A stretch of DNA of 30,675 nucleotides from a virus (IMGVR_UViG_2721755724_000001), one strand, 5' to 3'. Counted from the first letter of the stretch, positions 20 to 27,978 are shown. The notes: generated from the letters alone by a model not told the origin. Program-made: numbers and translations.

Positions 20-1315
20 TTAATTTTTCATTGCTTCGTTATGGGGCATGGTTGGGGCAAACTCGCTTAACTGTGTATTTAACAAAGCTACCTGTGCATT
101 ATTGTTTTCAGACATCCATTTTCCGTATACCTGAAATACCATTTGCGCATCTGCATGGCCCATCTGGTTTGCTATAAATGCCGGGTTAGCACCAGCTGTC
201 AGCGACCAGCAGGCATAAGTATGTCTCGACTGATATGATTTTCGATGGCGGAGTCCGGCACGTTTTATCGCTGCGTCCCACATCTGCCTTATTGAGTCAA
301 CGGTAAAATGGTCACCATAATTTTTTACTCTCGCTGACACTTCAGGTTGAAAAACAAAGGTGCATTTTTGTTTTTCTGTTCTGCCATACTCTCTGAGGTG
401 AACATCAATGATATGCTCTTTGCTCAGTCTCGTTAATGTCATCTGGCTCCGGAGAGCGTCGATTGCTGGCTTAATAAGATGAATGACCCGATTGGTTCCC
501 GCCTGTGTTTTTGGTACCGTGAAACGGTCTTTTGCTAAATTTCTCCTGATCATCATTGTTCCATTTTTCAGATCTATGTCCTCCCATCCAAGTGCACACA
601 GCTCACCAGGGCGAACGCCAGTATAAACAGAAACACACCATAAATTTTTTGCTTGCTGATTTCTGCACGCATCGATAAGACGGATAAATTCCTCCCGCGA
701 AAGAGGATCCGGAATGGTTCTTGATTCCTTTAATGGCGAGATCCCCTTAAGCGGATTATCTGGCAGGTAACCGTTATCAACACCAAACTGGAACACGGCG
801 TTAAGATTTGTCATGTAATTATTTACAGTTACAGCCGATCGCCCTGGTTGTGTAACAATATAGTTACTTTTGGGGATCTGGTATCCAGTCAGTAGCTCTT
901 TACGAACCTCCAGTAATTTTTCTTTATTAATCGATGAGGCAAGATTTTTTTCACCGATTATGCTCAGGATATTTTTGATGACGGCACGGTATGTGTTGAG
1001 TGATGTTTTGGCGACTTCAGTTTCTTTCAGTGCCAGAAATTTTTCAGCCAGTTCTTTTATGGTTAAATCTTGTCGGGCCTCACCAAATTTTTCCAGATTG
1101 CGTGAGGAGGGAAACTGTTTTGCATAGTCGAAAACACCAGTTTTTATTGCGTAACAAACAGAGGAGCGTAGTTCACCTGCAACGCGCCTGTTTTTTGCTG
1201 TGTCAGGAACCCCCAGATTTTCCCTGACTCTTACGCCTTTATAAACAAACCAGATACGTAATTTCCCTCCATGGTTTTCCACGCCTGTCGGATATTTCAT
1301 TTCAACTTCTCTCAT
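20..1315 (-). CDS. int: Phage tyrosine integrase (site-specific recombinase)
   Basis: 431-aa ORF; C-terminal catalytic region with conserved R...H..R...Y-type motifs (HTYACWSL, GHADAQMVFQVYG); sits at the prophage edge next to an excisionase-like gene. Confidence 0.9.
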   Translation of the reverse strand: MREVEMKYPTGVENHGGKLRIWFVYKGVRVRENLGVPDTAKNRRVAGELRSSVCYAIKTGVFDYAKQFPSSRNLEKFGEARQDLTIKELAEKFLALKETEVAKTSLNTYRAVIKNILSIIGEKNLASSINKEKLLEVRKELLTGYQIPKSNYIVTQPGRSAVTVNNYMTNLNAVFQFGVDNGYLPDNPLKGISPLKESRTIPDPLSREEFIRLIDACRNQQAKNLWCVSVYTGVRPGELCALGWEDIDLKNGTMMIRRNLAKDRFTVPKTQAGTNRVIHLIKPAIDALRSQMTLTRLSKEHIIDVHLREYGRTEKQKCTFVFQPEVSARVKNYGDHFTVDSIRQMWDAAIKRAGLRHRKSYQSRHTYACWSLTAGANPAFIANQMGHADAQMVFQVYGKWMSENNNAQVALLNTQLSEFAPTMPHNEAMKN

Positions 1316-1658: not shown

Positions 1659-4130
1659 TTAAGAATCAGCCTGACTCGGGATCAGTTTTTGCCAGATAAC
1701 TGAAACGTATTTTGCCTGGTAACGGGCGTCATCAAGTGCATTATGGCGCTCACCTTCGAATGGAATAGCCGTTCTGGCATCGAAGTCTATGGCTTTCCCC
1801 AGCTCAACGATTGTGCGTACATCGCGATCGTTGTAGTAACGCCACGGGCAGGGGATCCCCTGCCGTTCGTATGAACGGCGCAAAATCGTGTTGTCGAAGT
1901 TGGCTCCATTTCCCCAAACCTGAACAAAAAATTCACCGGAGTTTTCGTCGATAAATTCCCGCAATTGTAACAGTGCATCATCTAACGGGATTTCATCGGT
2001 CATAATGGCAGATTGCGCTTCGCGTGATTGCTTAAGCCACCATTTAATGGTGTTCCGATCAATGACTCCGCCAGCAGTTTCCAGATCGATAGTCTTACTA
2101 AATTCCGGTCCCATATCTCCGGTTTGCGGATCGAAAAATATTGCACCTATTGAGATGATCGGGGCATCAGGATTTTTTCCCATGGTTTCAAGGTCGATCA
2201 TTAGATGGTCACACGTCCTGCTGGTGGATGTGATTTCGTGATGACCGTTCACCTTAATTGAGTGATCTGCCGTCTCGCCAGTTTCATTATCGCTATTGTG
2301 ATGCTGATTGCCGCCAGTGTTCTCCTTGTGTGGATGTTCAGCGCCTTCCATTTCCTCCGGATCATCTTCCTGAACTTCAACCTGATATTCTTCATCGAAT
2401 GTTTCTTGATATGTTGCGTCGCCCATCACCGCGCCACAATCAGGGCAGTTGCCGCCGCCGGTCTGACCGCAGGCGGTGCAGACTTTTTCCACTTCCTGTT
2501 GCGCCACTGGTTCAGGCTGTTTCGTTTCTGGCTCGTTTTGTAACGCATTTGTGCTGTTTTGTTCCGCTTTTTGGTAGTTCCGTTCCGATTCATGCTGGTT
2601 CTGGTTCACAGAATCGCGGGTCTGGATCCCCTTAACCCATTTCGGATCATTCGGGTCACTAATCCCTTCAACAAATTCACCACGTGATGCAGCAAGCAAC
2701 TTATCGGCGTCAGGCTGGCTGATATTGGCTGCCTGCATAATTTTGTTTACTTCGTCAGCGGTAACTTTTATCGGCTCTGGTTGTTCTGAATCTTCAGCGG
2801 TATCTACATTTTGCGGTAAGCCCGTGTATGTGCCATTTTTTCGGGCAAAATATTCTTCTTTTGTGATTTCAGTGGCGCCAGCAGCCAGTGCCTTATCCAG
2901 ACCAGAAAGTTTGTTTGCGCGACCGTATTTTTCTCCGTCCTTATCTGCGAAGAGGAAATAGAACGGCCCCTCACGCTCTACAGATGGTTCAGCTTCCGGC
3001 GCGGTTTCATTTTTTGGGATATCAGATACCTCAGTTTCCACTGCATCAGTTTGTGTTTCTGATGACTGGAGAACATCAACAGTGCCCAGGTCTGTTTCTT
3101 CATTCTCAAACACGCCCTTTGTCGTCAGGTATTCGCAGATATATTTGTTCAGTGCTATGGGATCTTTGTGAATGTCGATCGGACGCTCACGGACAAGGCC
3201 AAAAATAGTCTGGCGGTCGTAGCGAAGGGCATCAGGCTGTTTGCGCATTGATGCCGAGATACGCTTCCAGTCTTCGCGGTCGTTGTCGATAACTTCTTTT
3301 TTTGCCCAGCGATGGATGCTGCCGTCAATGTTTCCGGCATCCACATCACCAGGCCAGAGAGCGTAGGCCAGTTCGTCATCCAGTGTTTTCCATGTCTGCT
3401 TGTATTCGCGATGAATGGCAGCAATGACCGGGCTGATTTTTCCTGTTGAATTTTCAGTGTACTGTTGATTGGCTCTGGCGCGGGCGAGATCAACAACAGA
3501 CGTGTATTTTCCGGTTTCCTTGCGTTCACCTTCGCGACGTTTTTTCCAGATGCGCATCTCTGCCTGAATTTCGGGCCATTTAGCACCAGGAATACATTTA
3601 TGCTTAACCCACCCAATGGCGTGCAACTTAAGCTCCGGATACATGGCGTTAACTTCTGGCATTTTCATCAACGCTTCAACGATATGTCCGTCGAATGTTG
3701 CCATGTCTTCCTGCAACAATTCCTGTGCGCTAATAACCATATCAACGGTGATGTTTTCACATGTGTCGAACTTAACCATGACAGCGTTCTGTACTTCAGG
3801 GGCCAGCTTGTCAAAAGTGACGTTCATCGGATCGGATTCAGTCTCAACCGGGACAAAAGAAGCAGACTCCTCATCCCAGCGGTTTTCCTGCATATATTCA
3901 GCATCCCATGAATCGAGGGCAGGGCGGGGTATGCCAGGTTTATCCTCGCAGACAATAAATTTATAAGCGCAGTCCTGAGCAGCCGGATAATGTTCCAGGA
4001 ACTGCCAGTGAAATTTTGCTCGAGCACGGCGTTCGTCGCCAGCTTCAATGGCTGTGGCTACAGCCACAGCGCCTTCTTCCCTTGTTGCCAGTTCGTCAGG
4101 AATAGCGGCGCAAATAAAGACTTTACTCAT
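1659..4130 (-). CDS. Large prophage exonuclease of the size usually annotated exodeoxyribonuclease VIII, with a C-terminal DnaQ-like DEDDh 3'-5' exonuclease domain
   Basis: 823-aa ORF; C-terminal about 190 aa carry Exo I (IDLETMG), Exo II (VWGNGANFDNTIL) and Exo III (HNALDDARYQA) motifs; acidic low-complexity middle region with a CxxC..CxxC cluster. Confidence 0.7.
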   Translation of the reverse strand: MSKVFICAAIPDELATREEGAVAVATAIEAGDERRARAKFHWQFLEHYPAAQDCAYKFIVCEDKPGIPRPALDSWDAEYMQENRWDEESASFVPVETESDPMNVTFDKLAPEVQNAVMVKFDTCENITVDMVISAQELLQEDMATFDGHIVEALMKMPEVNAMYPELKLHAIGWVKHKCIPGAKWPEIQAEMRIWKKRREGERKETGKYTSVVDLARARANQQYTENSTGKISPVIAAIHREYKQTWKTLDDELAYALWPGDVDAGNIDGSIHRWAKKEVIDNDREDWKRISASMRKQPDALRYDRQTIFGLVRERPIDIHKDPIALNKYICEYLTTKGVFENEETDLGTVDVLQSSETQTDAVETEVSDIPKNETAPEAEPSVEREGPFYFLFADKDGEKYGRANKLSGLDKALAAGATEITKEEYFARKNGTYTGLPQNVDTAEDSEQPEPIKVTADEVNKIMQAANISQPDADKLLAASRGEFVEGISDPNDPKWVKGIQTRDSVNQNQHESERNYQKAEQNSTNALQNEPETKQPEPVAQQEVEKVCTACGQTGGGNCPDCGAVMGDATYQETFDEEYQVEVQEDDPEEMEGAEHPHKENTGGNQHHNSDNETGETADHSIKVNGHHEITSTSRTCDHLMIDLETMGKNPDAPIISIGAIFFDPQTGDMGPEFSKTIDLETAGGVIDRNTIKWWLKQSREAQSAIMTDEIPLDDALLQLREFIDENSGEFFVQVWGNGANFDNTILRRSYERQGIPCPWRYYNDRDVRTIVELGKAIDFDARTAIPFEGERHNALDDARYQAKYVSVIWQKLIPSQADS

Positions 4131-4223
4131 TTTGTTTTAACCTCATGACAGATTTAAGGATGAACAAATCCCTGCCATTGCTGGCATATAAGAATGAAAC
4201 CGGATATTTATTACGGAACTGTT

Positions 4224-4415
4224 TTAAAGACCTGCCGGGATTTCGATATTATCCTGGTGAATAACTTTATCGACCGGGTAACAGTTACCGGGAATTTTCT
4301 GTTCGGTTGCTGCAGTCATACACTCCTGCATTGTCCTGTGAACACTGACTGCAATATCAACTGGCTCTCCGGAAACAAGAAAAACTGTCAGAACAAGCGC
4401 AAATGCTGAATTCAT
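4224..4415 (-). CDS. ydfD: YdfD-like small lysis protein
   Basis: 63-aa product from the internal Met (MNSAFALVLTVFLVSGEP...), N-terminal hydrophobic segment; start overlaps the dicB stop as ATGA, as in the Qin dicB operon. Confidence 0.6.
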   Translation of the reverse strand: MNSAFALVLTVFLVSGEPVDIAVSVHRTMQECMTAATEQKIPGNCYPVDKVIHQDNIEIPAGL

Positions 4416-4600
4416 TGTGCACATCCTTTTGGCATCAGACGTAAACGAGCCAGCATTGAAACAATGCATATTTTATTTAATAGCTCCCGTTCTTGTTTTC
4501 TCTTGTTAATGGCATCTTCAGTAAATACAGGGTTACTGATAGTGACACCAATTTCAAAACAACCTTCAGACGTATTAACGTTTGGTAATAACGTTTTCAT
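4412..4600 (-). CDS. dicB: Cell division inhibitor DicB
   Basis: 62-aa product MKTLLPNVNTSEGCFEIGVTISNPVFTEDAINKRKQERELLNKICIVSMLARLRLMPKGCAQ matches DicB as I recall it; GAGGA Shine-Dalgarno 7 nt upstream; DicF lies immediately upstream. Confidence 0.8.
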   Translation of the reverse strand: MKTLLPNVNTSEGCFEIGVTISNPVFTEDAINKRKQERELLNKICIVSMLARLRLMPKGCAQ

Positions 4601-4770
4601 TATCGCGTCCTCAACAATGAATTTTGTGATGCAGTGCCTGGTGCCTCCAGGTGACGTTAACCAGTTAACAATTAACGCCGGATACAGAGAATCCACCCAT
4701 AACACTGTTTTTGGTTTTAACTGTTCCGCGTGCGCTTAGCCGCATTCACCGCATCACAAAATTCACTTTA

Positions 4771-4827
4771 AAAACGGCGGCAGAGCAGTCACGGAGTAAA
4801 ACTGATACCGCCAAACGTCACCAGAAA
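4771..4827 (-). ncRNA. dicF: DicF small RNA (ftsZ-targeting) with intrinsic terminator hairpin
   Basis: Minus-strand sequence UUUCUGGUGACGUUUGGCGGUAUCAGUUUUACUCCGUGACUGCUCUGCCGCC followed by GUUUUU matches DicF as recalled; GGCGG...CCGCC stem plus U-run. Confidence 0.85.
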
Positions 4828-4858
4828 ATTGATAACAGAGGGCGTTGCAGCGGGGTTG

Positions 4859-5089
4859 TCACTTAAGCGTATGGTCAACCTGACAACTCGGTGTCCTCAA
4901 CGGGGAAGGAATAACCCCGCCATACTTACCGCCGCGCCATTTCGCGGGTTGCCACAACCGGAAGCGCACGGTCGAATTAAATTTAACGACACCGTACAGT
5001 GAGACGAACTTCGCCGTGCGCTTTCGTGTTGTGTGCCTGCTTTTAACCACGTCAGGCGAGGTGGTATCCTTCTTATTCCGAATAACCAA
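4859..5089 (-). CDS. Small basic protein in the ydfC position of the dicB operon
   Basis: 76-aa ORF directly upstream of DicF on the same strand; only a TTG start is available; Arg/Lys-rich. Identity as YdfC is positional only. Confidence 0.4.
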   Translation of the reverse strand: MVIRNKKDTTSPDVVKSRHTTRKRTAKFVSLYGVVKFNSTVRFRLWQPAKWRGGKYGGVIPSPLRTPSCQVDHTLK

Positions 5090-5102
5090 GAAGGAAATCT
5101 AT

Positions 5103-5303
5103 ATGACTAAAGAAGAATTTGTCTCTTATATTTTTGATAAAACGGTTGAAATGTATGCCGCTACTTACGGGTCCTGTAATCCTCTGAATAAACCAGAGGG
5201 GAAAGATGATTTCGACAAAATTTACCGCTTCTTGGAGGACCGCTATATCAAAAGGTTAGAGGACGCAGGGATCAAATCCCCAGTGAAGTCACCATTGTCC
5301 TGA
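5103..5303 (+). CDS. Hypothetical small protein (66 aa)
   Basis: ATG preceded by AAGGAAA Shine-Dalgarno at good spacing; the opposite strand over this span contains no ATG, so Qin-type ydfA/ydfB are not encoded here. Confidence 0.4.
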   Translation: MTKEEFVSYIFDKTVEMYAATYGSCNPLNKPEGKDDFDKIYRFLEDRYIKRLEDAGIKSPVKSPLS

Positions 5304-5637
5304 GAACTTGCAGGACGTCATGATCGTAACTTCCATCCAAACCGCGACGGCAAATTGCTTCTCGTATTACCGGAAGCAGTTCGCTGGAAATCTCGGTGCA
5401 TATTTCACCTGCTAATACGCCTGGCTCAAGTGAGAATATTGGTGAACTTACGGTCTTGGTCTCGACAGTTTCAGAGTCAGTGCCAACATTATAAAGCTCA
5501 ACGAAAGCGGTCTTGATTTTCCGGGCCAGATCTTTTGCTGGCTCGCTTGCAATATCTTTCCCGATTTCTCGCAGCACAGAATGCAATGTATGAGCTGCTG
5601 TTTTCTGTACATCAGACGGTAAATCTTTAAATTCCAT
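5272..5637 (-). CDS. Hypothetical acidic protein (about 121 aa) in the position a DicA-type repressor would occupy
   Basis: Open frame MEFKDLPSDVQKTAAHTLHSVLREIG...; no recognisable helix-turn-helix by eye; start could also be the upstream ATG at 5649. Confidence 0.45.
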   Translation of the reverse strand: MEFKDLPSDVQKTAAHTLHSVLREIGKDIASEPAKDLARKIKTAFVELYNVGTDSETVETKTVSSPIFSLEPGVLAGEICTEISSELLPVIREAICRRGLDGSYDHDVLQVLRTMVTSLGI

Positions 5638-5849
5638 CGTCAGCCTCATCAGTCAGTGTTTCTGGCTAACCAGCAACGCGCGCCAGATTCGGTTTTAAAC
5701 GTTTTGCTTTTGGTATATGTCATCGCGGTGAACGTACCGTCCTGGTTGGGGAACACGCCACATACAGGAGGCATCTGGCGGCGAGCTTCTGTATGATCCC
5801 AAGGTTTATGACGAATATCGTAAGACGAAGCGGGCGGGGCGGTTGAACA
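5638..5849. promoter_or_regulatory. Divergent intergenic region, probable immunity/early promoter-operator region
   Basis: About 210 bp between divergently oriented genes; contains the palindrome AAACGTTT and the dicC remnant. No operator repeats confidently identified. Confidence 0.3.
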
Positions 5850-5866
5850 ATGAAAATCACTCCTGA
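5732..5866 (+). pseudogene. dicC: 3' remnant of Cro-like repressor gene dicC
   Basis: Frame encodes ...QEASGGELLYDPKVYDEYRKTKRAGRLNNENHS*, matching the C-terminus of DicC as recalled; the frame is closed by a stop at 5729 with no start codon, so only about 44 codons remain. Confidence 0.45.
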
Positions 5867-6371
5867 ACAGGCTCGTGAGGCTCTGGATGCCTGGATATGT
5901 CGACCAGGAATGACACAGGAGCAGGCGACGATATTAATCACTGAAGCATTCTGGGCTTTGAAAGAGCGCCCGAACATCGATGTTCAGCGTGTCACAGATG
6001 AAGGTGGCGCGGTTGATCAGCGAGCGCTTGGCGTTAATCGAGTGAAGATATTCGAACGCTGGAAGGCTATCGACACTAGGGATAAGCGTGAAAAGTTCAC
6101 GGCGCTAGTGCCTGCAATTATGGAGGCTATCCGGATTAATGATTTCAGGTTGTATCGTGAAATTAGTGACGGAAAAAGCATCACGTACATGATCGCCGGG
6201 TTAAACAAAGAATATGGCGATGTGGTGGAGTCCGGACTGCTTTTTGCTGATCCTGCCGTAGTGGATCGTGAAACTGACGAACTTATAGAAAAAGCAATTG
6301 CTTTCAAACTTGCGTATCGACAGCAATACCAACAAAAAGCTGGATGGAATTATGAGCCTTCTTTTTGCTGA
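5850..6371 (+). CDS. Hypothetical phage early protein (173 aa)
   Basis: ATG-initiated ORF downstream of the cro-like remnant and upstream of the replication initiator; family not recognised. Confidence 0.55.
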   Translation: MKITPEQAREALDAWICRPGMTQEQATILITEAFWALKERPNIDVQRVTDEGGAVDQRALGVNRVKIFERWKAIDTRDKREKFTALVPAIMEAIRINDFRLYREISDGKSITYMIAGLNKEYGDVVESGLLFADPAVVDRETDELIEKAIAFKLAYRQQYQQKAGWNYEPSFC

Positions 6372-7317
6372 ACGCCCACTGGTTATAAACACACAGCTTG
6401 CGATGAAGATTGGCTTAAATGAAGCCATTGTGTTGCAGCAGTTGCATTACTGGTTGAGAGATACCAATTCCGGCATGGAATGTGATGGTGTTCGCTGGAT
6501 TTACAACACAACGGAACAATGGCTGGAACAGTTCCCATTCTGGTCAGAGTCAACGTTAAAGCGCGCGTTTGCAAGTCTGAAAACGCTGGGGCTTTTGCGT
6601 TGTGAAAAGCTCAATAAATCAAAGCGCGATATGACCAATTTCTACACGATCAACTATGGGAACGAGCTTTTAGATGGTGGCAAATTGAACGAATCCATCG
6701 GTTCAAAATGCGCCGCTCCATCAGGTCAAAATGACACGATGGAAGAGGTCAAAATGAAACGCTCCATTGGTTCAAAACGACCCAATGTCATCGGGTCAAA
6801 ATGGCCTGATGATCTTACAGAGAATACAACAGAGATTACTACAGAGAATAAAAACACTTTTCGTCCGGAAGCTTCGCAACCGGACCCGCAGACCGCTGAA
6901 CAGGATTTTTTAATCCGGAACCCCGACGCGGTTGTGTTTAGTGCGAAAAAACGCCAGTGGGGTAGCAGGGAGGATTTGGCGTGTGCGCAGTGGATTTGGG
7001 GGCGGATCGTGAACCTTTACGAACAGGCTGCCAGCGACGATGGAGAGATCATGCGACCAAAAGAGCCTAACTGGACAGCCTGGGCCAATGACGTGCGCAC
7101 AATGCGGATGCTGGATGGCAGAAGCCACAGACAAATTTGCGAAATGTTTGGTCGGGTACAGCGAGATCCATTCTGGGTAAAAAACATCATGAGCCCGTCA
7201 AAACTCCGCGAAAAATGGGACGAACTGGTCATCCGCTTGGGACGTTCACCTGTACAGCGTTGTGTGAATCATATTTCTGAACCGGATACAGAAATTCCGC
7301 CTGGTTTCAGGGGATAA
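6352..7317 (+). CDS. Phage replication initiator / replisome organizer (O-like)
   Basis: N-terminal winged-helix-like region (ERPLVINTQLAMKIGLNEAIVLQQLHYWL...), a central linker encoded by an iteron array, and a C-terminal region resembling DnaT/replication protein C-termini; start taken as the ATG at 6352. Confidence 0.65.
   Translation: MSLLFAERPLVINTQLAMKIGLNEAIVLQQLHYWLRDTNSGMECDGVRWIYNTTEQWLEQFPFWSESTLKRAFASLKTLGLLRCEKLNKSKRDMTNFYTINYGNELLDGGKLNESIGSKCAAPSGQNDTMEEVKMKRSIGSKRPNVIGSKWPDDLTENTTEITTENKNTFRPEASQPDPQTAEQDFLIRNPDAVVFSAKKRQWGSREDLACAQWIWGRIVNLYEQAASDDGEIMRPKEPNWTAWANDVRTMRMLDGRSHRQICEMFGRVQRDPFWVKNIMSPSKLREKWDELVIRLGRSPVQRCVNHISEPDTEIPPGFRG
6695..6805 (+). repeat. Five direct iterons (core GGTCAAAATG-like) at 23-24 bp spacing, followed by an A-rich stretch: probable phage origin inside the initiator gene
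   Basis: TCAAAA cores at 6703, 6726, 6749, 6772 and 6796; A/T-rich ACAGAGAATACAACAGAGATTACTACAGAGAATAAAAACAC follows at 6810-6850. Confidence 0.6.
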
Positions 7318-7644
7318 GTGTTGATTTCAGGTCATGAGGTAATTTTAAGGAGGACTTGTGGCAAAAGTTTTTACACAGGAAGAGCGGGAAAAAATTAAAG
7401 AGCAGGTGGTCGAACTTGTGCGCCAGAGCGGTCGCGAGACATTACGACAGTTGGAAGCTAAAACAGGTGCGACAAGATATCTGATGAGCATTCTTGCCAG
7501 AGAGCTGGTTGCCAGTGGTTATGTATACAACTCCGGCTACGGGTTATTCCCGTCTGAACAGGCACGAAAGGACTGGCAAAATGCCCGCAAAAAACTCTCT
7601 AGGGCGAAGGTGAAGAAACCCGCTGTGGTTGATTGGATTTGCCC

Positions 7645-8550
7645 CTATATTTCCAGACATCTGTTATCACTTAACCCATTACAAGCCCGCTGCCGCAGAT
7701 ATTCCCGTGGCGAGCGATAACCCAGCGCACTATGCGGATGCCATTCGTTATAATGCTCGAACGCCTCTGCAAGGTTCTTTGCTGCCGTTAACCCGTCTGG
7801 TTTGGGCATGATACTGATGTAGTCACGCTTTATCGTTTTCACGAAGCTCTCTGCTATTCCGTTACTCTCCGGACTCCGCACCGCCGTGTTCTTCGGTTCA
7901 AGTCCCAACATCCGGGCGAACTGGCGTGTTTCATTAGCCCGGTAGCATGAACCATTATCCGTCAGCCACTCCACTGGAGACGACGGAAGATCGTTGCCGA
8001 AGCGGCGTTCCACCGCTCCCAGCATGACGTCCTGTACTGTTTCACTGTTGAAGCCGCCGGTAGTGACCGCCCAGTGCAGTGCCTCACGATCACAGCAGTC
8101 CAGCGCGAACGTGACACGCAGTCTCTCTCCGTTATCACAGCAGAACTCGAACCCGTCAGAGCACCATCGCTGATTGCTTTCTTTCACGGCCACTCTGCCT
8201 GTATGTGCCCGTTTCGATGGCGGTACAGCAGGTTTTCGCTCAAGCAACAGCGCATTCTGGCGCATGATCCGGTAAACACGTTTGGCATTGATCGCAGGCA
8301 TACCATCAAGTTCTGCCTGTCTGCGAAGCAGCGCCCATACCCGACGATAACCATACGTGGGCAGCTCTCCGATAACATGGTGTATACGGAGAAGCACATC
8401 CGTATCATCAGTGTGACGACTGCGGCGGCCATCCATCCAGTCATCGGTTCGTCTGAGAATGACGTGCAACTGCGCACGCGACACCCGGAGACAACGGCTG
8501 ACTAAGCTTACTCCCCATCCCCGGGCAATAAGGGCGCGTGCGCTATCCAC
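7645..8550 (-). CDS. insD: IS2 transposase OrfB (InsD), full length
   Basis: 301-aa ORF ending ...[37 protein letters not shown]; normally expressed as an InsCD frameshift fusion. Confidence 0.9.
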
Positions 8551-8873
8551 TTTTTTGCCCGTCCATATTCAACGGCTTCTTTGAGGAGTTCATTTTCCAT
8601 CGTTTTCTTGCCGAGCAGGCGCTGGAGTTCTTTAATCTGCTTCATGGCGGCAGCAAGTTCAGAGGCAGGAACAACCTGTTCTCCGGCGGCGACAGCAGTA
8701 AGACTTCCTTCCTGGTATTGCTTACGCCAGAGAAATAACTGGCTGGCTGCTACACCATGTTGCCGGGCAACGAGGGAGACCGTCATCCCCGGTTCAAAGC
8801 TCTGCTGAACAATTGCGATCTTTTCCTGTGTGGTACGCCGTCTGCGTTTCTCCGGCCCTAAGACATCAATCAT
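8508..8873 (-). CDS. insC: IS2 transposase OrfA (InsC)
   Basis: 121-aa product [26 protein letters not shown]... matches IS2 InsC. Confidence 0.9.
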
Positions 8874-9273
8874 CTGTTCTCCAATGACTAGTCTAAAAAC
8901 TAGTATTAAGACTATCACTTATTTAAGTGATATTGGTTGTCTGGAGATTCAGGGGGCCAGTCTATTGATCCGGACCTTATCTGGTCACTACCTGATGGAG
9001 AAATACGTCGCTACGACAGTCGTCTAAACATAATCTGTCGCGAGTGCCGGAAGAGCGAAGTTATGCAGCGCATACTGGCATTTTATCAGTGAAATTTTCG
9101 TTATTTATAGACGTAACTAGATTAAAGAGCATTAGTTCAGATGTGAATTGACATTTTCACGGCACAGGATTGAGCTAGCGTGGTTGTCTGCTTTGCGTCA
9201 AAAGCAGATATTACCAGATTTAGACATCTATTCCCGATAGCCCTGCTCTGATGCCACACTCTGTGCTATTTTC

Positions 9274-9735
9274 ATGACCCCAATAAAAATATTTATGACT
9301 ATTGCTGATTTCAAACGGCCTAAATTGGAGCTCCCAAACGGGGCAAACAAACTACTACTGCACTCTTGCTGTGCTCCATGTTCCGGTGAAGTGATGGAGG
9401 CGCTTCAGGCCTCGGGAATCGACTATACCATCTTTTTCTACAACCCGAACATTCATCCTCAGAAAGAGTATTTAATTCGTAAGGATGAGAATATTCGCTT
9501 TGCTGAACAACACGGCGTGCCATTTATTGATGCTGATTACGACACAGACAACTGGTTTGAACGTGCCAAAGGAATGGAATGGGAACCCGAGAGGGGGATC
9601 CGTTGTACCATGTGTTTTGACATGCGTTTTGAGCGGACAGCGCTGTACGCTGCTGAAAATGGTTTCAGTGTGATCAGCAGTTCACTGGGCATTTCACGCT
9701 GGAAAAATATGCAGCAGGTTACCGTCACTGGATAA
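9274..9735 (+). CDS. QueH-family (DUF208, epoxyqueuosine reductase-like) protein, short form
   Basis: 153-aa ORF with the family-typical [12 protein letters not shown] block plus FFYNPNIHP and RCTMCF motifs; ends after ...[13 protein letters not shown], shorter than the canonical enzymes as I recall them. Confidence 0.55.
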
Positions 9736-11410: not shown

Positions 11411-11935
11411 TTATTGTTTAACCCATAATAGTTCATTGACATTGAATCCCAACTTTTGAGCGGTACGCACATAGTCTGCTTTTACATTATCTGGAATAGT
11501 TTGGGTCCTTGCCAGAATCCATAGGTATTCTCTGTTCGGACCACTGACAAGAGCATACTTATACTCATCATCCAGTTTGATTACATTATAGCCACCATAG
11601 AAGGGGCCAAAAAACGAAACTTTCAACGCTGCAGTTTTAGTATCTCCAGTAAAGTATGCTTTACCTTCGCTCTCGCTCCATTTGTTTTTCGTTGGATCGT
11701 ATCCACGGTTAAGTACGCGAATCCCTCCGTCGTTCCGTTTTTCATAAGTAGCGCTGACCTGTTCCAGACCACGTTCGAACCAGTTCTCGAGGCGAGCTAT
11801 TTCATACCATTTTCCGAGGTAGCGGTTGGCGTCAAAATTTGTAATCGGCTGCACACCTTTAGGTGGTGTCGGGGCCTTACATGCTATAAGAGTGAAAGAG
11901 AGTGCAATGCCAGTCAACACAGGCCATAACTTCAT
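11411..11935 (-). CDS. blc: Bacterial lipocalin (Blc-family outer-membrane lipoprotein)
   Basis: 174-aa ORF with lipoprotein signal peptide (LIAC lipobox) and strong similarity to E. coli Blc throughout (NFDANRYLGKWYEIARLENWFERGLE..., KVSFFGPFYGGYNVI, YLWILART). Confidence 0.8.
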   Translation of the reverse strand: MKLWPVLTGIALSFTLIACKAPTPPKGVQPITNFDANRYLGKWYEIARLENWFERGLEQVSATYEKRNDGGIRVLNRGYDPTKNKWSESEGKAYFTGDTKTAALKVSFFGPFYGGYNVIKLDDEYKYALVSGPNREYLWILARTQTIPDNVKADYVRTAQKLGFNVNELLWVKQ

Positions 11936-12127: not shown

Positions 12128-13087
12128 ATGATAAAAAAACCTGTGATTGGGATCAGCGGTTGTTTGGGCGGTTCTGCTGTTCGTTTTGATGGTGGTCACA
12201 AAAGAGATGACTTTTTAATGGACAAATTAGTGGAATGGGTAACATTCAGACCAGTATGTCCGGAAATGGCTATAGGGCTGCCAGTTCCGCGTCCTGCTCT
12301 ACGACTTGTGCGCTCGAAGCAAGGAAATATACGGATGTGTTTCAGCCACGACCAGAATGAGGATGTGACAGAGAGAATGACAGAGTTTAGTCGTTCTTAT
12401 ATGGACAAATTAAAGGATGTATCGGGTTTTGTGGTTTGTGCTAAATCTCCCAGCTGTGGCATGGAGCGCGTGCGTGTCTATGATGAAAATGGTAATCGAG
12501 GTCGTAAAGATGGAGTGGGACTATTTACGAGCACTTTGATGGAAAAGTTTTCCTGGCTACCGGTTGAAGAGGATGGGCGATTACATGATCCAGTGCTTCG
12601 TGAGAATTTTATTGAAAGAGTTTTTGCTTTGCATGAGCTCAATCACCTTTACAAGGAGAAATTATCAAGAAGAGAGTTATTAGCTTTTCATAGTCGTTAT
12701 AAGCTTCAGTTGTTGGCGCATAGCCAGGCAGGCTATAAAGATATGGGACCATTTGTGGCTGCAATACACGAGTGGGCGGACCTTGAATCATACTTTGAGG
12801 TGTATCGTGATAATCTGATGGCGATTCTCAGAAAACCAGCATCACGTAAAAATCACACGAATGTGCTGATGCATATACAGGGGTATTTTAGTAATTACTT
12901 AAGTACACGCCAGCGTAAAGAGTTGAGCGAGGTTATACTTAACTATCGCTTTGGCACATTGCCTCTTCTTGCGCCGTTGACTCTGCTGAAGCATTATCTG
13001 GGTGAGTATCCTAATGATTACTTGCTTACACAGAATTACTTCGATCCCTATCCGGAAGAACTGGCTCTAAGACTGATGGTGAATTAA
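12128..13087 (+). CDS. Two-domain DUF523 (TudS-like thionucleobase desulfidase family) / DUF1722 (YbgA-like) protein
   Basis: 319-aa ORF with GGGGGAGG Shine-Dalgarno; N-terminal Cys triad (GISGCLGG, PVCPE, AKSPSCG) typical of DUF523 Fe-S proteins; C-terminal half resembles YbgA. Confidence 0.65.
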   Translation: MIKKPVIGISGCLGGSAVRFDGGHKRDDFLMDKLVEWVTFRPVCPEMAIGLPVPRPALRLVRSKQGNIRMCFSHDQNEDVTERMTEFSRSYMDKLKDVSGFVVCAKSPSCGMERVRVYDENGNRGRKDGVGLFTSTLMEKFSWLPVEEDGRLHDPVLRENFIERVFALHELNHLYKEKLSRRELLAFHSRYKLQLLAHSQAGYKDMGPFVAAIHEWADLESYFEVYRDNLMAILRKPASRKNHTNVLMHIQGYFSNYLSTRQRKELSEVILNYRFGTLPLLAPLTLLKHYLGEYPNDYLLTQNYFDPYPEELALRLMVN

Positions 13088-17296: not shown

Positions 17297-17659
17297 ATTA
17301 ATATTAAATCGGATTATTTTTAGCGCTGAATGTGAAATTTAAATAAAAAGGACTCTTCCATGAGTCAAAATCCTTGAAATCTTAAGGGTAAGATAAAAGG
17401 TCATTAGACAGAATGACACGTTTTATTAATAAATAAAGCTATTGTTTCATTCGTGTGTTTTTCTTTACAAAAGTAATCCTTGCTATGGTTGGTTAATCAT
17501 GCGTTAATGGTGTTCTGGTTTGTTACAAAATTATCTGAAGCAGTCATTGTTATAATTTTATTATTTGTACCTCTTGAGATTTCCTTGTTGGTTTTTCTCT
17601 CTGATATTTTTTTTCGGACCATTCTGCCCAAGGGCTAACTTCTTCAAAAGGTAATAATG

Positions 17660-17872
17660 ATGTCTAACACAATGACTGGTTTAGTGAAATGGTTTAACCC
17701 TGAAAAAGGTTTTGGTTTCATCACGCCGAAAGATGGTAGCAAAGATGTGTTTGTCCATTTCTCAGCTATTCAGAGCAACGATTTCAAAACGTTAACTGAG
17801 AATCAGGAAGTCGAATTTGGTATTGAGAACGGACCTAAAGGCCCCGCGGCTGTTCATGTTGTGGCACTTTGA
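17660..17872 (+). CDS. cspI: Cold-shock protein, CspA family (CspI-like)
   Basis: 70-aa product [70 protein letters not shown]; preceded by a long AT-rich leader of about 350 bp. Confidence 0.85.
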
Positions 17873-18071
17873 GGTAGAAAATATTACAAACCATATTCAC
17901 TTTAGATGCCCGTGTTGCCATGGTTCTCAGTATAGAACATCATCTTTTGATGTTTCTGACAGGAATCCTTTCGGGGCAAAATGTATCTTTTGTAAATCAA
18001 TGATGATTACATTTGATAATATTTCACAATACTTAAATGTTAGCCGTCTATCGTTAGATTTAAGAAAGTGA
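17856..18071 (+). CDS. Small Cys-rich protein in the ynfN position (possible zinc ribbon)
   Basis: Frame encoding ...[41 protein letters not shown]...; start uncertain; position after cspI matches Qin gene order. Confidence 0.4.
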
Positions 18072-20480: not shown

Positions 20481-21031
20481 TCACCATAACTGCTAACCAT
20501 TCTGACCATTTCACAAGTGACAGAGTCAATATCGTATTCTGTCACTGTCAGGCTAATACAGCAATGCAATTCAACTACAGCAATGCCTCGTATTTAGGTG
20601 AATTTACAATATCGTCCAGTTCGGATGCCGGCTGCATTTCTGAAGATAAGGCATTTCGGTTCTCGTATTTTCCCCTCATGCTCGTCAGTCCTGCGCGTAG
20701 TAAGAAACAGGACACTCACACTAATTTGTGTGGGCATGCTGTGATGTCCTTCTGAATTATCCCCATGCCATTATGTAAAGCTCTGTTTCAGATGCTCGTC
20801 ACGGTTGTCAGGCTGTCGGGTCCTCCCAGTGGGGGTCCCTGCCACGGGGCGGGAGCGTCGCGGAAAAAGGCTAGTTTTTGCATTTCCATGGCGGCGGCAG
20901 CATGTTTGGTAATTTATTGATAATTAAAAAGTTATTTCTCTTTTCAGCTGTACAATATTTTTTTCTCCCTGTCATTAGACTAGTTTGCAATTAATTGAAA
21001 TATATAAATAAACCTGATTTTCACCTGCCAG

Positions 21032-21588
21032 ATGGAGTTGCTTATGTCAAATGTGAGCGGGATCGGTGATGCTTATTACTGGAGTGTTTTTAAAATCGCC
21101 GAGGCCTTTGGGCTTCACCGGGACACAGTAAAAAAACGGCTCCTCGCGGCCAACACTCCTGTGGCTGCGACTGTCAGGGGGAACCCCGTTACCGGTTTGT
21201 CGCCTTAACCGATTACGACCGTTTTCCGGAGAATATCGACAGCGAGGGTGATGGTTTCTCCCAGGCCTCAAAACGTACCACCACATTTATGTCCGCCGGG
21301 ATGACTCTGGTGGAGAGCTCGCCGGGACGTGACATCTGCGACAGCAAATGGCGACGTAAGTCGCCTCATGAAGCGCCACCGACGACTGGTATTCTTTCCC
21401 TTTACAATCGTGGTGACCGCCGCCGCTGGTACTGGCCATGTCCGCACTGCGGTGAATATTTTCAGCCAGCCATGGATGCCATGACCGGCTACCGTAATGA
21501 ACCGGATCCCTTTAAAGCCAGTGATGCGCTGTATGCCGGTATGGAACGGGCAGACGCTGACGTTCGTGCAGGACCGACCATCAGATAA
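21032..21588 (+). pseudogene. Remnants of the terminase region: short small-subunit-like N-terminal ORF and an internal large-subunit (GpA-family-like) fragment
   Basis: 59-codon ORF (MELLMSNVSGIGDAYYWSVFKIAEAFGLHRDTVKKRL...) then a frame containing WYWPCPHCGEYFQP, similar to the CPHCGE motif of lambda gpA; no ATPase domain is present. Confidence 0.4.
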
Positions 21589-23968
21589 GGTGTGGACCTA
21601 TAACCGCAGTAATGTGGTGATGCCGGATGATGGCGCGCCGTTCCGCTACAGCTTCAGCGCCCTGAAGGACCGCCATAATGCCGTTGAGGTGAACTGGATT
21701 GACCCGAACAACGGCTGGGAGACGGCGACAGAGCTTGTTGAAGATACGCAGGCCATTGCCCGTTACGGTCGTAATGTCACGAAGATGGATGCCTTTGGCT
21801 GTACCAGCCGGGGGCAGGCACACCGCGCCGGGCTGTGGCTGATTAAAACGGAACTGCTGGAGACGCAGACCGTGGATTTCAGCGTGGGTGCTGAAGGGCT
21901 TCGCCATGTACCGGGCGATGTCATTGAAATCTGCGATGATGACTATGCCGGTATCAGCACCGGCGGGCGCGTGCTGGCGGTAAACAGCCAGACCCGGACG
22001 CTGACGCTCGACCGTGAAATCACGCTGCCATCTTCCGGCACCACGCTGATAAGCCTGGTTGACGGGCAGGGGAGTCCGGTCAGCGTGGAGGTTCAGTCCG
22101 TCACCGACGGCGTGAAGGTAAAAGTGAGCCGTGTTCCTGACGGTGTTGCTGAATACAGCGTATGGGGGCTGAAGCTGCCGACGCTGCGCCAGCGACTGTT
22201 CCGCTGCGTGAGTATCCGTGAGAACGACGACGGCACGTATGCCATCACCGCCGTGCAGCATGTGCCGGAAAAAGAGGCCATCGTGGATAACGGGGCGCAC
22301 TTTGACGGCGACCAGAGCGGCACGGTGAATGGTGTCACGCCGCCAGCGGTGCAGCACCTGACTGCCGAAGTCACCGCAGACAGCGGGGAGTATCAGGTAC
22401 TGGCCCGCTGGGACACGCCGAAGGTGGTGAAGGGGGTGAGCTTTATGCTTCGCCTGACCGTGGCAGCGGACGACGGCAGTGAGCGGCTGGTCAGCACGGC
22501 CCGGACGACAGAAACCACATACCGCTTCACGCAACTGGCGCTGGGACGGTACACGCTGACAGTCCGGGCGGTAAATGCGTGGGGACAGCAGGGCGATCCG
22601 GCGTCGGTATCGTTCCGGATTGCCGCACCGGTAGCACCGTCGCGGATTGAGCTGACGCCGGGCTATTTTCAGATAACTGCCACGCCGCATCTTGCGGTTT
22701 ATGATCCGACGGTACAGTTTGAGTTCTGGTTCTCGGAAACGCGGATTACCGATATCAGGCAGGTTGAAACCACAGCCCGCTACCTTGGTGCGGGGCTGTA
22801 CTGGATAGCCGCCAGTATCAATATCAAACCGGGCCATGATTATTACTTTTATATCCGCAGTGTGAACACCGTTGGCAAATCGGCATTCGTGGAGGCTGTT
22901 GGTCAGCCGAGTGATGACGCATCCGGCTATCTGGATTTTTTCAAAGGCGAGATAGGGAAAACCCATCTGGCTCAGGAGCTGTGGACGCAGATTGATAACG
23001 GTCAGCTTGCGCCTGACCTGGCTGAAATCAGGACATCCATTACGGATGTCAGCAATGAAATCACACAGACCGTCAATAAGAAACTGGAAGACCAGAGTGC
23101 AGCGATTCAGCAGATACAGAAGGTTCAGGTTGATACAAATAATAACCTGAACAGCATGTGGGCCGTGAAACTGCAGCAGATGCAGGACGGACGCCTTTAT
23201 ATTGCGGGTATCGGTGCCGGTATTGAGAATACGCCAGCAGGAATGCAGAGTCAGGTGCTGCTGGCGGCAGACAGGATTGCGATGATTAATCCTGCGAATG
23301 GCAACACAAAGCCGATGTTTGTTGGTCAGGGTGATCAGATATTCATGAACGACGTGTTCCTGAAACGCCTGACGGCTCCCACCATTACCAGCGGCGGTAA
23401 TCCTCCTGCATTTTCCCTTACACCGGACGGGCGACTGACGGCGAAAAATGCGGATATCAGTGGCAGTGTGAATGCGAACGCCGGGACGCTCAACAATGTC
23501 ACGATAAATGAAAACTGTCGGGTTCTGGGAAAACTGTCTGCGAACCAGATTGAAGGCGATCTCGTTAAAACAGTGGGCAAAGCTTTCCCCCGGGACTCCC
23601 GTGCACCGGAGCGGTGGCCATCAGGGACCATTACCGTCAGGGTTTATGACGATCAGCCGTTTGACCGGCAGATTGTTATTCCCACGGTGGCGTTTCGTGA
23701 CGCTAAACATGAGCGGGAGAATAACGATATTTATTCGTCATGCCGCCTGATAGTGAAGAAAAACGGTGCTGAAATTTATAACCGTACCGCGCTGGATAAT
23801 ACGCTGGTTTATACAGGTGTTATTGATATGCCTGCCGGTCACGGTCACATGACGCTGGAGTTTTCGGTATCAGCGTGGCTGGTAAATGACTGGTATCCCA
23901 CAGCCAGTATCAGTGATTTGCTGGTTGTGGTGATGAAGAAATCCACAGCAGGTATCAGTATCAGCTGA
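21551..23968 (+). pseudogene. Host specificity protein J (central tail fibre), C-terminal roughly two-thirds only
   Basis: Near-identity over hundreds of residues to lambda J from ...[29 protein letters not shown]... to the C-terminus; the apparent N-terminus of the 823-aa ORF is out-of-frame terminase-region sequence. Left boundary approximate (about 30 bp). Confidence 0.8.
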
Positions 23969-23987
23969 ATTTTATAACCCATATGCG

Positions 23988-24015
23988 GGCGCCATTTCTG
24001 GCGCCTTTTTTATTG
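23988..24015 (+). terminator. Rho-independent terminator after J
   Basis: GGCGCCA-TTTC-TGGCGCC hairpin followed by a T-run. Confidence 0.6.
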
Positions 24016-24035
24016 CAGAAAAGCGAGAGGTAATT

Positions 24036-24635
24036 ATGCGTAAAGTTTGTGCAGCCATTTTGTCCGCAGCCATCTGTCTGGCCGTATCCGGTGCGCCTGC
24101 ATGGGCGTCTGAGCAGCAGGCCACACTGAGCGCAGGGTATCTTCATGCCTCGACGAACGTTCCCGGTAGTGATGATCTGAACGGGATTAACGTGAAATAC
24201 CGTTATGAGTTTACGGACACGCTGGGGCTGATTACGTCATTCAGTTATGCCAACGCTGAAGATGAGCAAAAAACGCATTACAGCGATACCCGCTGGCATG
24301 AGGATTCCGTGCGTAACCGCTGGTTCAGCGTGATGGCGGGGCAGTCTGTGCGCGTGAATGAATGGTTCAGCGCGTATGCGATGGCGGGTGTGGCTTACAG
24401 CCGTGTGTCGACTTTCTCCGGGGATTATCTCCGCGTAACTGACAACAAGGGGAAAACGCACGATGTGCTGACCGGAAGTGATGACGGTCGCCACAGCAAC
24501 ACGTCTCTGGCGTGGGGGGCTGGCGTGCAGTTTAACCCGACCGAATCCGTGGCCATTGATATTGCTTATGAAGGTTCCGGCAGTGGTGACTGGCGCACTG
24601 ACGGTTTCATCGTGGGTGTCGGTTATAAATTCTGA
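24036..24635 (+). CDS. lom: Lom-family outer-membrane protein (Ail/Lom/PagC beta-barrel)
   Basis: 199-aa ORF with signal peptide and an Ail/Lom-type beta-barrel pattern ending ...GFIVGVGYKF; position after J as in lambda. Confidence 0.9.
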   Translation: MRKVCAAILSAAICLAVSGAPAWASEQQATLSAGYLHASTNVPGSDDLNGINVKYRYEFTDTLGLITSFSYANAEDEQKTHYSDTRWHEDSVRNRWFSVMAGQSVRVNEWFSAYAMAGVAYSRVSTFSGDYLRVTDNKGKTHDVLTGSDDGRHSNTSLAWGAGVQFNPTESVAIDIAYEGSGSGDWRTDGFIVGVGYKF

Positions 24636-24662
24636 TTAGCCAGGTAACACAGTGTTATGACA

Positions 24663-24689
24663 GCCCGCCGGTTCAGGCGGGTTTTTTTG
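24663..24689 (+). terminator. Rho-independent terminator after lom
   Basis: CCCGCC-GGTTCA-GGCGGG hairpin followed by a 7-T run. Confidence 0.6.
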
Positions 24690-25029
24690 TGGGGGGAATA
24701 TGGCAGTACGGATTTCAGGTGTACTGAAAGATGGCGCAGGTAAGCCGATACAAAACTGCACCATTCAGCTAAAGGCCAGGCGCAACAGCACCACGGTGGT
24801 GGTGAACACAGTGGCCTCAGAAAACCCGGATGAAGCCGGGCGTTACAGCATGGACGTTGAGTACGGTCAGTACAGCGTTATTCTGTTGGTGGAAGGCTTC
24901 CCGCCATCGCATGCCGGGACCATCACCGTGTATGAAGACTCACAACCGGGTACGCTGAATGATTTTCTCGGTGCCATGACGGAGGATGATGTCCGTCCGG
25001 AGGCACTGCGCCGCTTTGAACTGATGGTG

Positions 25030-25700
25030 GAAGAGGTGGCGCGTAACGCGTCCGCAGTGGCACAGAACACGGCAGCCGCGAAGAAGTCAGCCAGTGATGC
25101 CCGCACATCAGCCCGTGAGGCGGCAACCCATGCGACTGATGCTGCGGACTCCGCACGCGCAGCCAGCACGTCAGCCGGACAGGCCGCGTCGTCGGCTCAG
25201 TCAGCGTCTTCCAGCGCAGGAACGGCATCAACAAAGGCTACTGAAGCATCAAAAAGTGCTGCCGCTGCAGAGTCTTCAAAAAGCGCGGCAGCCACCAGTG
25301 CCGGTGCAGCGAAAACGTCAGAAACGAATGCCGCAGCATCACAAAAATCTGCGGCCACTTCTGCATCCACCGCGACCACGAAAGCGTCAGAAGCTGCCAC
25401 CTCAGCCCGGGATGCGTCGGCTTCAAAAGTGGCGGCAAAATCATCAGAAACGAGCGCAGCCTCGAGCGCCGGCAGTGCAGCTTCCTCGGCAACGGCGGCA
25501 GGAAATTCCGCGAAGGCCGCAAAAACGTCTGAGATGAATGCGGATAACAGCGCACAGGCGGCAGCAGACTCACAAACTGCATCGGCAAATTCCGCGACAG
25601 CAGCCAAAAAATCAGAAACCAACGCGAAAAATAGTGAGTCAGCAGCAAAGGTCAGCGAAACCAACGCTAAAGCGTCAGAGAACAAGGCGAAAGAATATCT
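25030..25700 (+). repeat. Ala/Ser/Thr/Lys-rich low-complexity repeat region within stf
   Basis: About 200 codons of short degenerate SA..A..S/KSA repeats, as in lambda Stf; generates long spurious ORFs on other frames and strands. Confidence 0.7.
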
Positions 25701-27612
25701 CGACAAGGTCGGGGGACTCGTCAGCCCGATGACGCAATACGATTGGCCCGTTGTTACTGGTAATGAGTCTTTTTACATAAAGATCGCGAAACTTTCCGAT
25801 CCCGGAAGCAACAATTGCCATGTAACGCTAATGGTTACTAACGGCGGTGACTACGGCTCCCCTTACGGAAACATTGACTTTATCGAGATCTCGGCGCGCG
25901 GTCTGCCTTCTTCGCTTACTGCTGATAATGTATCTCGTTACCTGAGTATACGCCGTTTAGGGCCAACCGGGCTAATCAATAGCATGCAAATGCGTTACGG
26001 CCTGGTTAAAGATGATGGCTTTATTGAGGTTTGGGCCTTCCAGCGTGCATTTATCAACGGCGCAAAGGTTGCGGTACTGGCGCAGACGGCACGCACGGAA
26101 TTATACATTCCAGACGGATTTGTTAAGCAAACCGCCGCGCCTTCTGGATATGTTGAAAGCCCCGTTGTAAGGATTTACGACCAGTTAAACAAGCCGACTA
26201 AAGCAGATTTGGGTCTTTCTAATGCTATGCTTACAGGCGCTTTCGGTCTTGGCGGTAGCGGGATATCAACAAACGGCAAGATGAGCGATGTAGAGATCTT
26301 AAAAGCTCTGCGTGACAAAGGTGGTCATTTCTGGCGCGGTGATAAGCCGACCGGAAGCACGGCGACCATTTATAGCCACGGTTCTGGTATATTCTCGCGG
26401 TGCGGCGATACGTGGTCAGCGATCAATATCGACTACTCAACCGCGAAGATTAAGATCTATGCCGGCAACGATGCCCGGCTTAACAACGGGACTTTTAGCA
26501 TCAATGAGCTATACGGCTCGGCAAACAAGCCGTCGAAATCGGATGTTGGACTTGGCAACGTAACGAACGATGCGCAGGTAAAAAAAACCGGCGATACAAT
26601 GACCTGTGACTTGACAATCAAAAAAGGTACACCGTCAGTCTTCCTGCGGGCAGACAGTGGAGTCACCGCTTTGCGGTTTTATACTGGCGATAACACAGAG
26701 CGCGGCATAATCTATGCTGGTCCTAACACTGATTCGCTTGGCGAAGTTCGCATCAGGGCAAAGACAGCAGGGGGGACATCAGGAGGGGATCTTGTTGTTC
26801 GTCACGACGGGAGGGTTGAAGTCCGTGATCTCACAGTAGCGTATAAAATTAAAAGCAGAACGATTGAGATTGCAAATACCGACACTGACTCATCGGCAAC
26901 TACGCTCAGCATCTATGGAGTACAGCACACGCCGTTGGTTTTAACGCGTTCTGGTTCTTCTGAAAATGTGTCCATTGGGTTTAAGTTAGACAACATGAAC
27001 CCAAAGTATCTTGGAATTGATACTAATGGGGATCTGGCTTTTGGTGAGAGTCCTGATCAGAAACAAAACAGCAAATTGATCACGCAAGCGAAACTCGACA
27101 AGGGATTAACGATTGGTGGTCAACTGGCTTTCAAAGGTACGACAGCGTTTTCAGCCGTTGCTACGTTCAGTGCCGGGATAGCAGGAGCCATCGAGCCGGA
27201 AAACATTGACGGCCAGACGGTTAATCTTAACAACCTGACCATCATCAAGTCAGATGCCGGGGCAGTTAAATACTATATTTGTCCATCCTCTGCAGGTGGT
27301 GCAAATATTACCAATAAGCCTGACGGCATAGCCGGTAACTTTTTGCTCCGTGTAGAGTCGACTCGTAAGGTTAGGGATTCAGATTATGCGAACATGCAAA
27401 CGCTGATTAACAGCGACACAAAACGTATATACGTTCGCTTTGTTGTTAATGGAAACTGGACAGCGTGGAGTCAGGTTGTTGTTTCCGGATGGAATCAGGA
27501 TATAACTGTCAGGTCGTTAACTAGACTGGCCCCCTGAATCTCCAGACAACCAATATCACTTAAATAAGTGATAGTCTTAATACTAGTTTTTAGACTAGTC
27601 ATTGGAGAACAG

Positions 27613-27978
27613 ATGATTGATGTCTTAGGGCCGGAGAAACGCAGACGGCGTACCACACAGGAAAAGATCGCAATTGTTCAGCAGAGCTTTGAACCGGGGA
27701 TGACGGTCTCCCTCGTTGCCCGGCAACATGGTGTAGCAGCCAGCCAGTTATTTCTCTGGCGTAAGCAATACCAGGAAGGAAGTCTTACTGCTGTCGCCGC
27801 CGGAGAACAGGTTGTTCCTGCCTCTGAACTTGCTGCCGCCATGAAGCAGATTAAAGAACTCCAGCGCCTGCTCGGCAAGAAAACGATGGAAAATGAACTC
27901 CTCAAAGAAGCCGTTGAATATGGACGGGCAAAAAAGTGGATAGCGCACGCGCCCTTATTGCCCGGGGATGGGGAGTAA
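27613..27978 (+). CDS. insC: IS2 transposase OrfA (InsC), copy 2
   Basis: Identical 121-aa product to copy 1. Confidence 0.9.

Follow-up and report, generated by a model that had tools for sequence, protein, structure and literature searches.

An intact dicF-dicB-ydfD effector cassette, probably orphaned by an 840-bp deletion in a Qin-type prophage of Escherichia coli

The DNA analyzed here, a viral stretch of 30,675 nucleotides referred to below as the window, carries the dicF, dicB, and ydfD effectors on its minus strand; all three are present and sequence-intact. An 840-bp segment that holds their control region in close relatives is missing. The identities of the effectors and the deletion itself are directly observed. 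With a probability of about 0.75 for the whole explanation, the interval comprises the effectors of the early-left ("dicBF") operon in a lambdoid prophage of the Qin type, and the cassette has been transcriptionally orphaned, so that it is most likely silent or reached by at most weak read-through and would not undergo classical derepression. Cassettes of this kind in E. coli prophages combine a block of cell division (DicF RNA and DicB protein) with cell lysis (YdfD). The cassette is well known from cryptic prophages, is annotated in RefSeq, and is described in the literature; the module itself is already known and, as a textbook cassette, matters little as a finding.

The block 4985..4200 was aligned with the Qin prophage region of K-12 MG1655 and was identical at 777 of 786 positions (98.9%), an alignment that is far above chance. 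The closest relatives of the whole window, for example EC190486 (92% cover, 99.5% identity), carry the element between rspB and ydfJ, and the Qin genes ydfU, essQ, rrrQ, rzpQ, cspI, ynfQ, gnsB, and pinQ are found in these relatives. The window is thus the prophage at the Qin site (rspB to ydfJ) in an E. coli lineage other than K-12. A 1,221-bp stretch around the module occurs as identical DNA in many complete E. coli genomes, where RefSeq labels dicB, ydfD, and an exonuclease. Used as a query, this stretch had some match in 4,752 of the 5,426 complete E. coli genomes, and in 416 the match extended over at least 80% of its length.

The effector block and the gene that follows it are composed of the following features, all of them on the minus strand; the initial annotation gave no strand.

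1659..4130, minus strand: 823-aa exonuclease (Pfam Rv2179c-like 3'-5' exoribonuclease domain, 225.7 bits, residues 642-813; RefSeq "exonuclease")
4224..4415, minus strand: ydfD, 63-aa lysis protein, DUF1482 (Pfam PF07358, K-12 identity, RefSeq WP_001083273.1)
4412..4600, minus strand: dicB, 62-aa cell-division inhibitor (Pfam PF05358, NCBIfam NF049927, K-12 identity)
4607..4775, minus strand: dicF-dicB spacer (predicted duplex; two substitutions relative to K-12, at 4751 and 4737)
4775..4827, minus strand: DicF sRNA, 53 nt (single-stranded 5' region, bulged terminator hairpin, and UUUUU; RF00039 and K-12 match)
4828..4964, minus strand: precursor leader of the 190-nt DicF (bounded upstream by the 5' end that RNase III makes some 137 nt before DicF, and downstream by the RNase E site where DicF begins)

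The DicB profiles were matched over residues 1-62 of 62 in an open frame, with 136.8 bits for Pfam PF05358 (cut-off, 27 bits) and 132.8 bits for NF049927 (cut-off, 100 bits). The protein is identical to that of K-12 at 62 of 62 residues, and the only nucleotide difference in the gene is a synonymous change at 4529. In K-12, DicB targets FtsZ and ManXYZ together with MinC (PMC10448788), and brief expression of dicBF gives K-12 protection against lambda via ManXYZ (PMC6832061); MinC-dependent inhibition of division is expected of the window protein from its identity to the characterized one (PMC10448788, PMC6832061). YdfD matched Pfam PF07358 over its full length (92 bits against a cut-off of 25) and is identical to the K-12 protein at 62 of 63 residues, the difference being V6A. 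Identical DNA is annotated in RefSeq as "lysis protein YdfD". The K-12 protein lyses cells via inhibition of IspG (PMC8835842). Because the effectors are identical or nearly identical to those of K-12, they should act in the same way if transcribed.

The stop codon of dicB and the start codon of ydfD overlap in the sequence ATGA at 4415..4412 on the coding strand (TCAT on the plus strand), and the coupled starts and stops described in the initial annotation hold for this pair. Two longer open reading frames of 97 and 81 aa, produced by a naive ORF scan, were rejected as upstream extensions of the true 62-aa dicB and 63-aa ydfD.

A scan of the whole window against Rfam (cmscan) gave a single DicF match, to RF00039 at 4826..4775, with a score of 72.5 bits and an E value of 2.3e-14 over the full model (1-52); the gathering score of the family is 48 bits. 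The covariance-model search proposed in the initial annotation thus returned a full-length match, and the claim that DicF, DicB, and YdfD are all present and intact was borne out. The 53-nt DicF annotation of K-12 maps to 4827..4775 with 52 of 53 nucleotides identical. Nucleotides 1-52 are unchanged, and the sole change is C to G at nucleotide 53 (window position 4775). In the MFE fold, DicF forms a hairpin of 7 + 5 bp followed by UUUUU; its z value is only -1.4 relative to shuffled sequences, so that the fold alone is weak evidence. Nucleotide 53 is unpaired in this fold and lies outside the terminator stem. The duplex predicted between DicF and K-12 ftsZ (-29..+26) is alike for both alleles (-38.9 versus -38.5 kcal/mol), and nucleotide 53 is unpaired in it as well. 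G53 also occurs in E2863 and in phages Tritos and HannyBb and is the majority allele within this small comparison set. The C53G substitution was therefore rejected as a meaningful change of DicF, since it is unpaired in both structures and is a common allele. Pairing with ftsZ and pykA is known to use the 3' region of DicF, and pairing with xylR its 5' end (PMC5069750); all of these regions are unchanged relative to K-12. The alignment with K-12 thus showed neither a substitution in a DicF pairing region nor a break in the dicB frame, the two findings that the initial annotation had named as speaking against its claim. As the ftsZ pairing sequence is untouched, the function of DicF is predicted to be preserved.

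The processing leader of DicF is also conserved. In K-12, RNase III yields a 190-nt DicF and RNase E the 53-nt DicF (PMC10448788). The upstream end at 4964 is a calculated coordinate (190 minus 53). As far as about 4985 the sequence is nearly identical to that of K-12, apart from single changes at 4888 and at 4976-4978. On the other side of DicF, MFE folds predict a 29-bp long-range RNA duplex between 4775..4747 and 4636..4607 (z = -3.8, 411-nt fold). It joins the bases immediately 3' of DicF to the region of the dicB Shine-Dalgarno sequence (GAGGA), which the duplex encloses. A 72-nt DicF species arising from an RNase III cut is among the work cited in PMC5069750, and the predicted duplex is likely to be the substrate for this cut. 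It should be mentioned that the C at 4751 of the window converts a G-U pair of K-12 to a G-C pair in this duplex.

The region 4828..5089 is without a known gene: it contains the DicF precursor leader and a 76-aa ORF that starts with TTG. This ORF, together with the two genes that lie further upstream of DicF, is given below.

4859..5089, minus strand: 76-aa TTG ORF, probably not a gene (phrog_8854 match only)
5103..5303, plus strand: 66-aa hypothetical gene (phrog_34441, 170 bits; RefSeq WP_000159335.1)
5272..5637, minus strand: orf121, 121-aa hypothetical gene (phrog_33007, 273 bits; RefSeq WP_023281935.1)

It is very improbable that the 76-aa ORF is a real fourth gene of the module, encoding a YdfC-like small protein that is translationally linked to the others. 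Its sole support is the match to phrog_8854, a family of unknown function, at 96 bits, together with the 63-aa version of the frame that is open in phage HannyBb; the gene caller chose a different frame in that phage, and phrog_8854 may simply gather ORF calls over conserved noncoding DNA. The ORF has no match in Pfam or NCBIfam and no Shine-Dalgarno sequence before the TTG, its frame is open for just 36 aa in K-12, and it was left unannotated by PGAP/RefSeq in every record inspected. Furthermore, part of the ORF lies over the structured DicF leader, and the RNase III cut expected near 4964 would fall within it (PMC10448788). The assignment as a YdfC-like gene was rejected on the lack of a family, the frame not conserved in K-12, and the other frame taken in HannyBb, with reserve regarding the phrog_8854 match. 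The right edge of the interval, placed at 5089 in the initial annotation, was set by this ORF.

Beyond about 4990, on the upstream side, the window no longer aligns with K-12. There, ydfB/ydfC of K-12 Qin are replaced in the window by orf121 and the 66-aa gene, both of unknown function. The 66-aa gene is antisense within the early-left operon and shares 32 nt with the 3' end of orf121.

The main difference from intact relatives is found beyond orf121. In E2863 and CP53, a gene for a 135-aa HTH repressor comes after the ydfA homologue, and then a divergent Cro/CI gene of 75 aa and ydaT. Alignment of the window with E2863 revealed that 840 bp are missing, with identical flanks on both sides. The following features mark the site.

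5649..5774, minus strand: truncated ydfA homologue, DUF1391 (Pfam PF07151, profile positions 12-47 of 48)
5765..5766, no strand: deletion junction (3-bp microhomology TAC)
5762..5866, plus strand: C-terminal remnant of a DicC/Cro-like gene, last ~35 codons (PGAP pseudogene)

The missing segment held the start of the ydfA homologue, the promoter and operators, the whole DicA-like repressor, and about half or more of the DicC/Cro-like gene. The ydfA homologue, which is 50 aa in the intact relative, lost its first 9 codons, its ribosome-binding site, and its 5' UTR; the new ATG and first codons of the truncated ORF come from the antisense strand of the cro remnant. The remnant is annotated by PGAP as a pseudogene, "transcriptional regulator / dicC, missing N-terminus", in strains 127, EC190486, and LR-31 (its coordinates in the window were transferred from L003). 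The truncated DUF1391 ORF thus adjoins this remnant, and ydaT (5850..6371) follows on the other strand. The promoter of the early-right operon (ydaT, an O-like gene, and others) was lost too, the deletion having taken both early promoter/operator regions.

A 90-bp probe across the junction had full-length matches in 13 of the 5,426 complete E. coli genomes, 9 at 100% and 4 at 96.7% identity. Because there are these two classes, the 13 genomes represent at least two sub-lineages. Both junction flanks are carried by 364 genomes in total. The deletion is a genuine allele, carried by a minority. The gap was also considered as a swap of immunity regions or an assembly artifact. Both were rejected: the flanks are identical to those of intact relatives, truncated ORFs lie at both ends, and 13 independent complete genomes have the same junction. 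No natural deletion of dicA-dicC-dicBp was found described in the searchable literature, which is weak negative evidence. In the genomes bearing the deletion, DicB shows only single conservative changes, and the effectors are without inactivating mutations; decay is not evident. This intactness may just reflect a recent deletion, the flanks being 100% identical to those of intact relatives.

The deletion bears directly on how the module could be controlled. That the window holds a complete, normally regulated dicBF locus, repressed in cis by a DicA-type protein and derepressible, would agree with the intact state of the three effectors and with the same arrangement in K-12, E2863, CP53, and viable phages. 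This explanation is extremely improbable. The window contains neither the repressor gene nor the operators nor the promoter, so that the explanation is ruled out by the alignment with E2863; beyond the truncated ydfA there is only the cro remnant and then ydaT on the other strand. A misassembly would be needed to rescue it, yet the junction is shared by the 13 complete genomes. The description of the module as complete in the initial annotation therefore stands for the three effectors and fails for the operon, from which the promoter, operators, repressor, most of cro, and the start of ydfA have been deleted.

Where the element is intact, one long RNA is transcribed from a PL-like promoter (dicBp) that lies upstream of ydfA. 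RNase III and RNase E excise DicF from it, and the DicF hairpin terminates part of the transcripts. DicF, with Hfq, pairs with the ribosome-binding site of ftsZ and with other mRNAs. Read-through leads to DicB, which blocks the FtsZ ring via MinC and also inhibits ManXYZ, and to YdfD, which causes lysis by inhibition of IspG. In the copy of the window, the 840-bp loss of the promoter, operators, repressor, and most of cro would have left the cassette transcriptionally orphaned.

The contents of the deleted piece are in agreement with this model. It holds the sole sigma70-like site on the operon strand, TTGACG-17-TAAATT, and this site lines up with the promoter region that precedes ydfA in K-12. 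It also holds three copies of the palindrome TTGAGAAAACTCAA, which we infer to be the operators of the ancestral immunity type. This palindrome was not found around the module in the window, where its one match, at chance level, is far off at 23223; the K-12 Oc operator TTGTTAGTCATAACTAACAA (PMC3441716) had no match in the window. Among the features of a dicBF operon, the promoter and operators, a DicA-like repressor, an intact Cro-like gene, and a full-length ydfA are all absent from the window. A scan of the minus strand over 4100..9000 gave no promoter site with 9 or more of 12 matches. A looser scan of the same strand over 4827..7700 gave 5 sites at 8/12, compared with 10.9 expected by chance. 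Although consensus scans miss weak, activator-dependent, or non-sigma70 promoters, no convincing replacement promoter on the operon strand was obtained, the sites being fewer than chance. The silence of the cassette is predicted because both the promoter and the repressor are gone and no convincing minus-strand promoter is seen in 4827..9000.

In K-12, dicBp upstream of ydfA is the only promoter for DicF and DicB, and no internal one was found; deletion of dicA derepresses it 22-fold (PMC10448788). An older study, as cited in the same paper, proposed a promoter upstream of dicB. Because the genes upstream of DicF differ here, the failure to find an internal promoter in K-12 may apply only partly to the window. 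The main alternative to silence is expression of the module from a new, DicA-independent source, with DicF and DicB made at a low constitutive level or under different regulation. Such a source is rather unlikely. Its candidates are a weak internal promoter, an outward or hybrid promoter of IS2, and antisense read-through across the ydaT/O genes. The best cryptic candidate is a weak site within orf121 with a perfect -10 (TCAAGA-17-TATAAT, 5516..5488). IS2 (7634 to ~8964), an element able to form outward hybrid promoters, points toward the module from 2.8 kb upstream. The retention of intact effectors in two sub-lineages that bear the deletion would also fit a new source, as would the accumulation of K-12 DicF from very low transcription in stationary phase (PMC10448788). 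Set against these points, promoter-like sites on the operon strand are below chance, and intactness may simply mean that the deletion is recent. As for read-through, the antisense RNA would be at least 1.8 kb long and untranslated, and such an RNA would be a good target for Rho.

A more specific form of a new source is that the allele is a domesticated one, in which low, DicA-independent DicF, and perhaps DicB, would be made from a cryptic or IS2-derived promoter. This is still less likely. If true, host-modulating factors would have been uncoupled from prophage immunity, and the 13 junction genomes would be natural material on the host roles of DicF and DicB without a lethal burst.

Transcriptional orphaning of the cassette remains the preferred explanation, and it changes how the module is to be regarded in its host. 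Intact genes are not equal to a functional, inducible module. Because the allele has lost its control region, toxicity by derepression is not expected. The sequence itself disposes of most of the concern in the initial annotation that the effectors are toxic when derepressed and that their regulation in the host matters: the repressor is already gone, and no known promoter is left to be released. Deletion of the repressor only would be expected to be strongly counter-selected; a deletion that takes the promoter too would be tolerated. The allele would be a natural example of a lethal prophage operon disarmed in one step with its toxic genes untouched, a small, plausible, and unsurprising case.

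Several observations concern the rest of the prophage. The 823-aa exonuclease is the next gene of the early-left operon and is the intact form of the K-12 pseudogene ydfE; xis and int follow. Its long acidic N-terminal part has no assignment. The tyrosine integrase (20..1315, minus strand) and xis are intact, whereas ydfE and intQ of K-12 Qin are pseudogenes; the two Qin alleles have decayed in complementary places. In the early-right operon, IS2 lies on the minus strand, with imperfect inverted repeats at 7642-7674 and 8923-8955; it splits a DUF977 gene, and its transposase reads toward the dicB module. Cargo-like genes are located between the replication and lysis regions at 9274..9735, 11411..11935 (minus strand), and 12128..13087: a QueH fragment, a lipocalin-family gene on the opposite strand, and a YbgA-family gene, respectively, all named from the annotation of EC190486. 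At 17502..17899 (plus strand), an Rfam match to the cspA thermoregulator (109 bits) corresponds to the 5' UTR and start of cspI, and ynfQ is next in EC190486. From about 21000 to 30675 the morphogenesis region has collapsed, and the prophage is clearly defective. In EC190486, terminase fragments run directly into an N-terminally truncated tail-tip (J-like) ORF (21497..23968); Lom (24036..24635), a 945-aa tail fiber (24700..27537), and the pinQ recombinase (from 30085) then follow in this region.

Compared with K-12 Qin, the window is alike in its chromosomal site next to rspB, in the nearly identical DicF leader and spacer, and in the ATGA overlap of dicB and ydfD. The two differ in that K-12 has dicA, dicC, dicBp, and operators, all of which the window lacks through the 840-bp deletion. 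The immunity types also differ, the ancestral palindrome here being TTGAGAAAACTCAA and the Oc operator of K-12 being TTGTTAGTCATAACTAACAA. Conversely, the exonuclease, xis, and int are intact in the window and are pseudogenes in K-12 Qin.

E. coli E2863, CP53, and the O111 strains are 100% identical to the window over 4100..5320 and over both junction flanks. The 840 bp are still in place in these strains, and with them the 135-aa HTH repressor, the 75-aa Cro/CI protein, the promoter-like site, and the full 50-aa DUF1391 protein. In phages Tritos, HannyBb, PhiR42_1, and mEp460_ev081, the 791-bp block 4200..4990 is 97.5-99.4% identical to the window, and the gene order is the same: small ORFs, DicF, dicB, ydfD, and the 823-aa exonuclease. 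The prophage of the window is defective and lacks its immunity region, whereas the viable phages have complete genomes with CI and Cro upstream of the module, which in them always lies directly downstream of the repressor gene.
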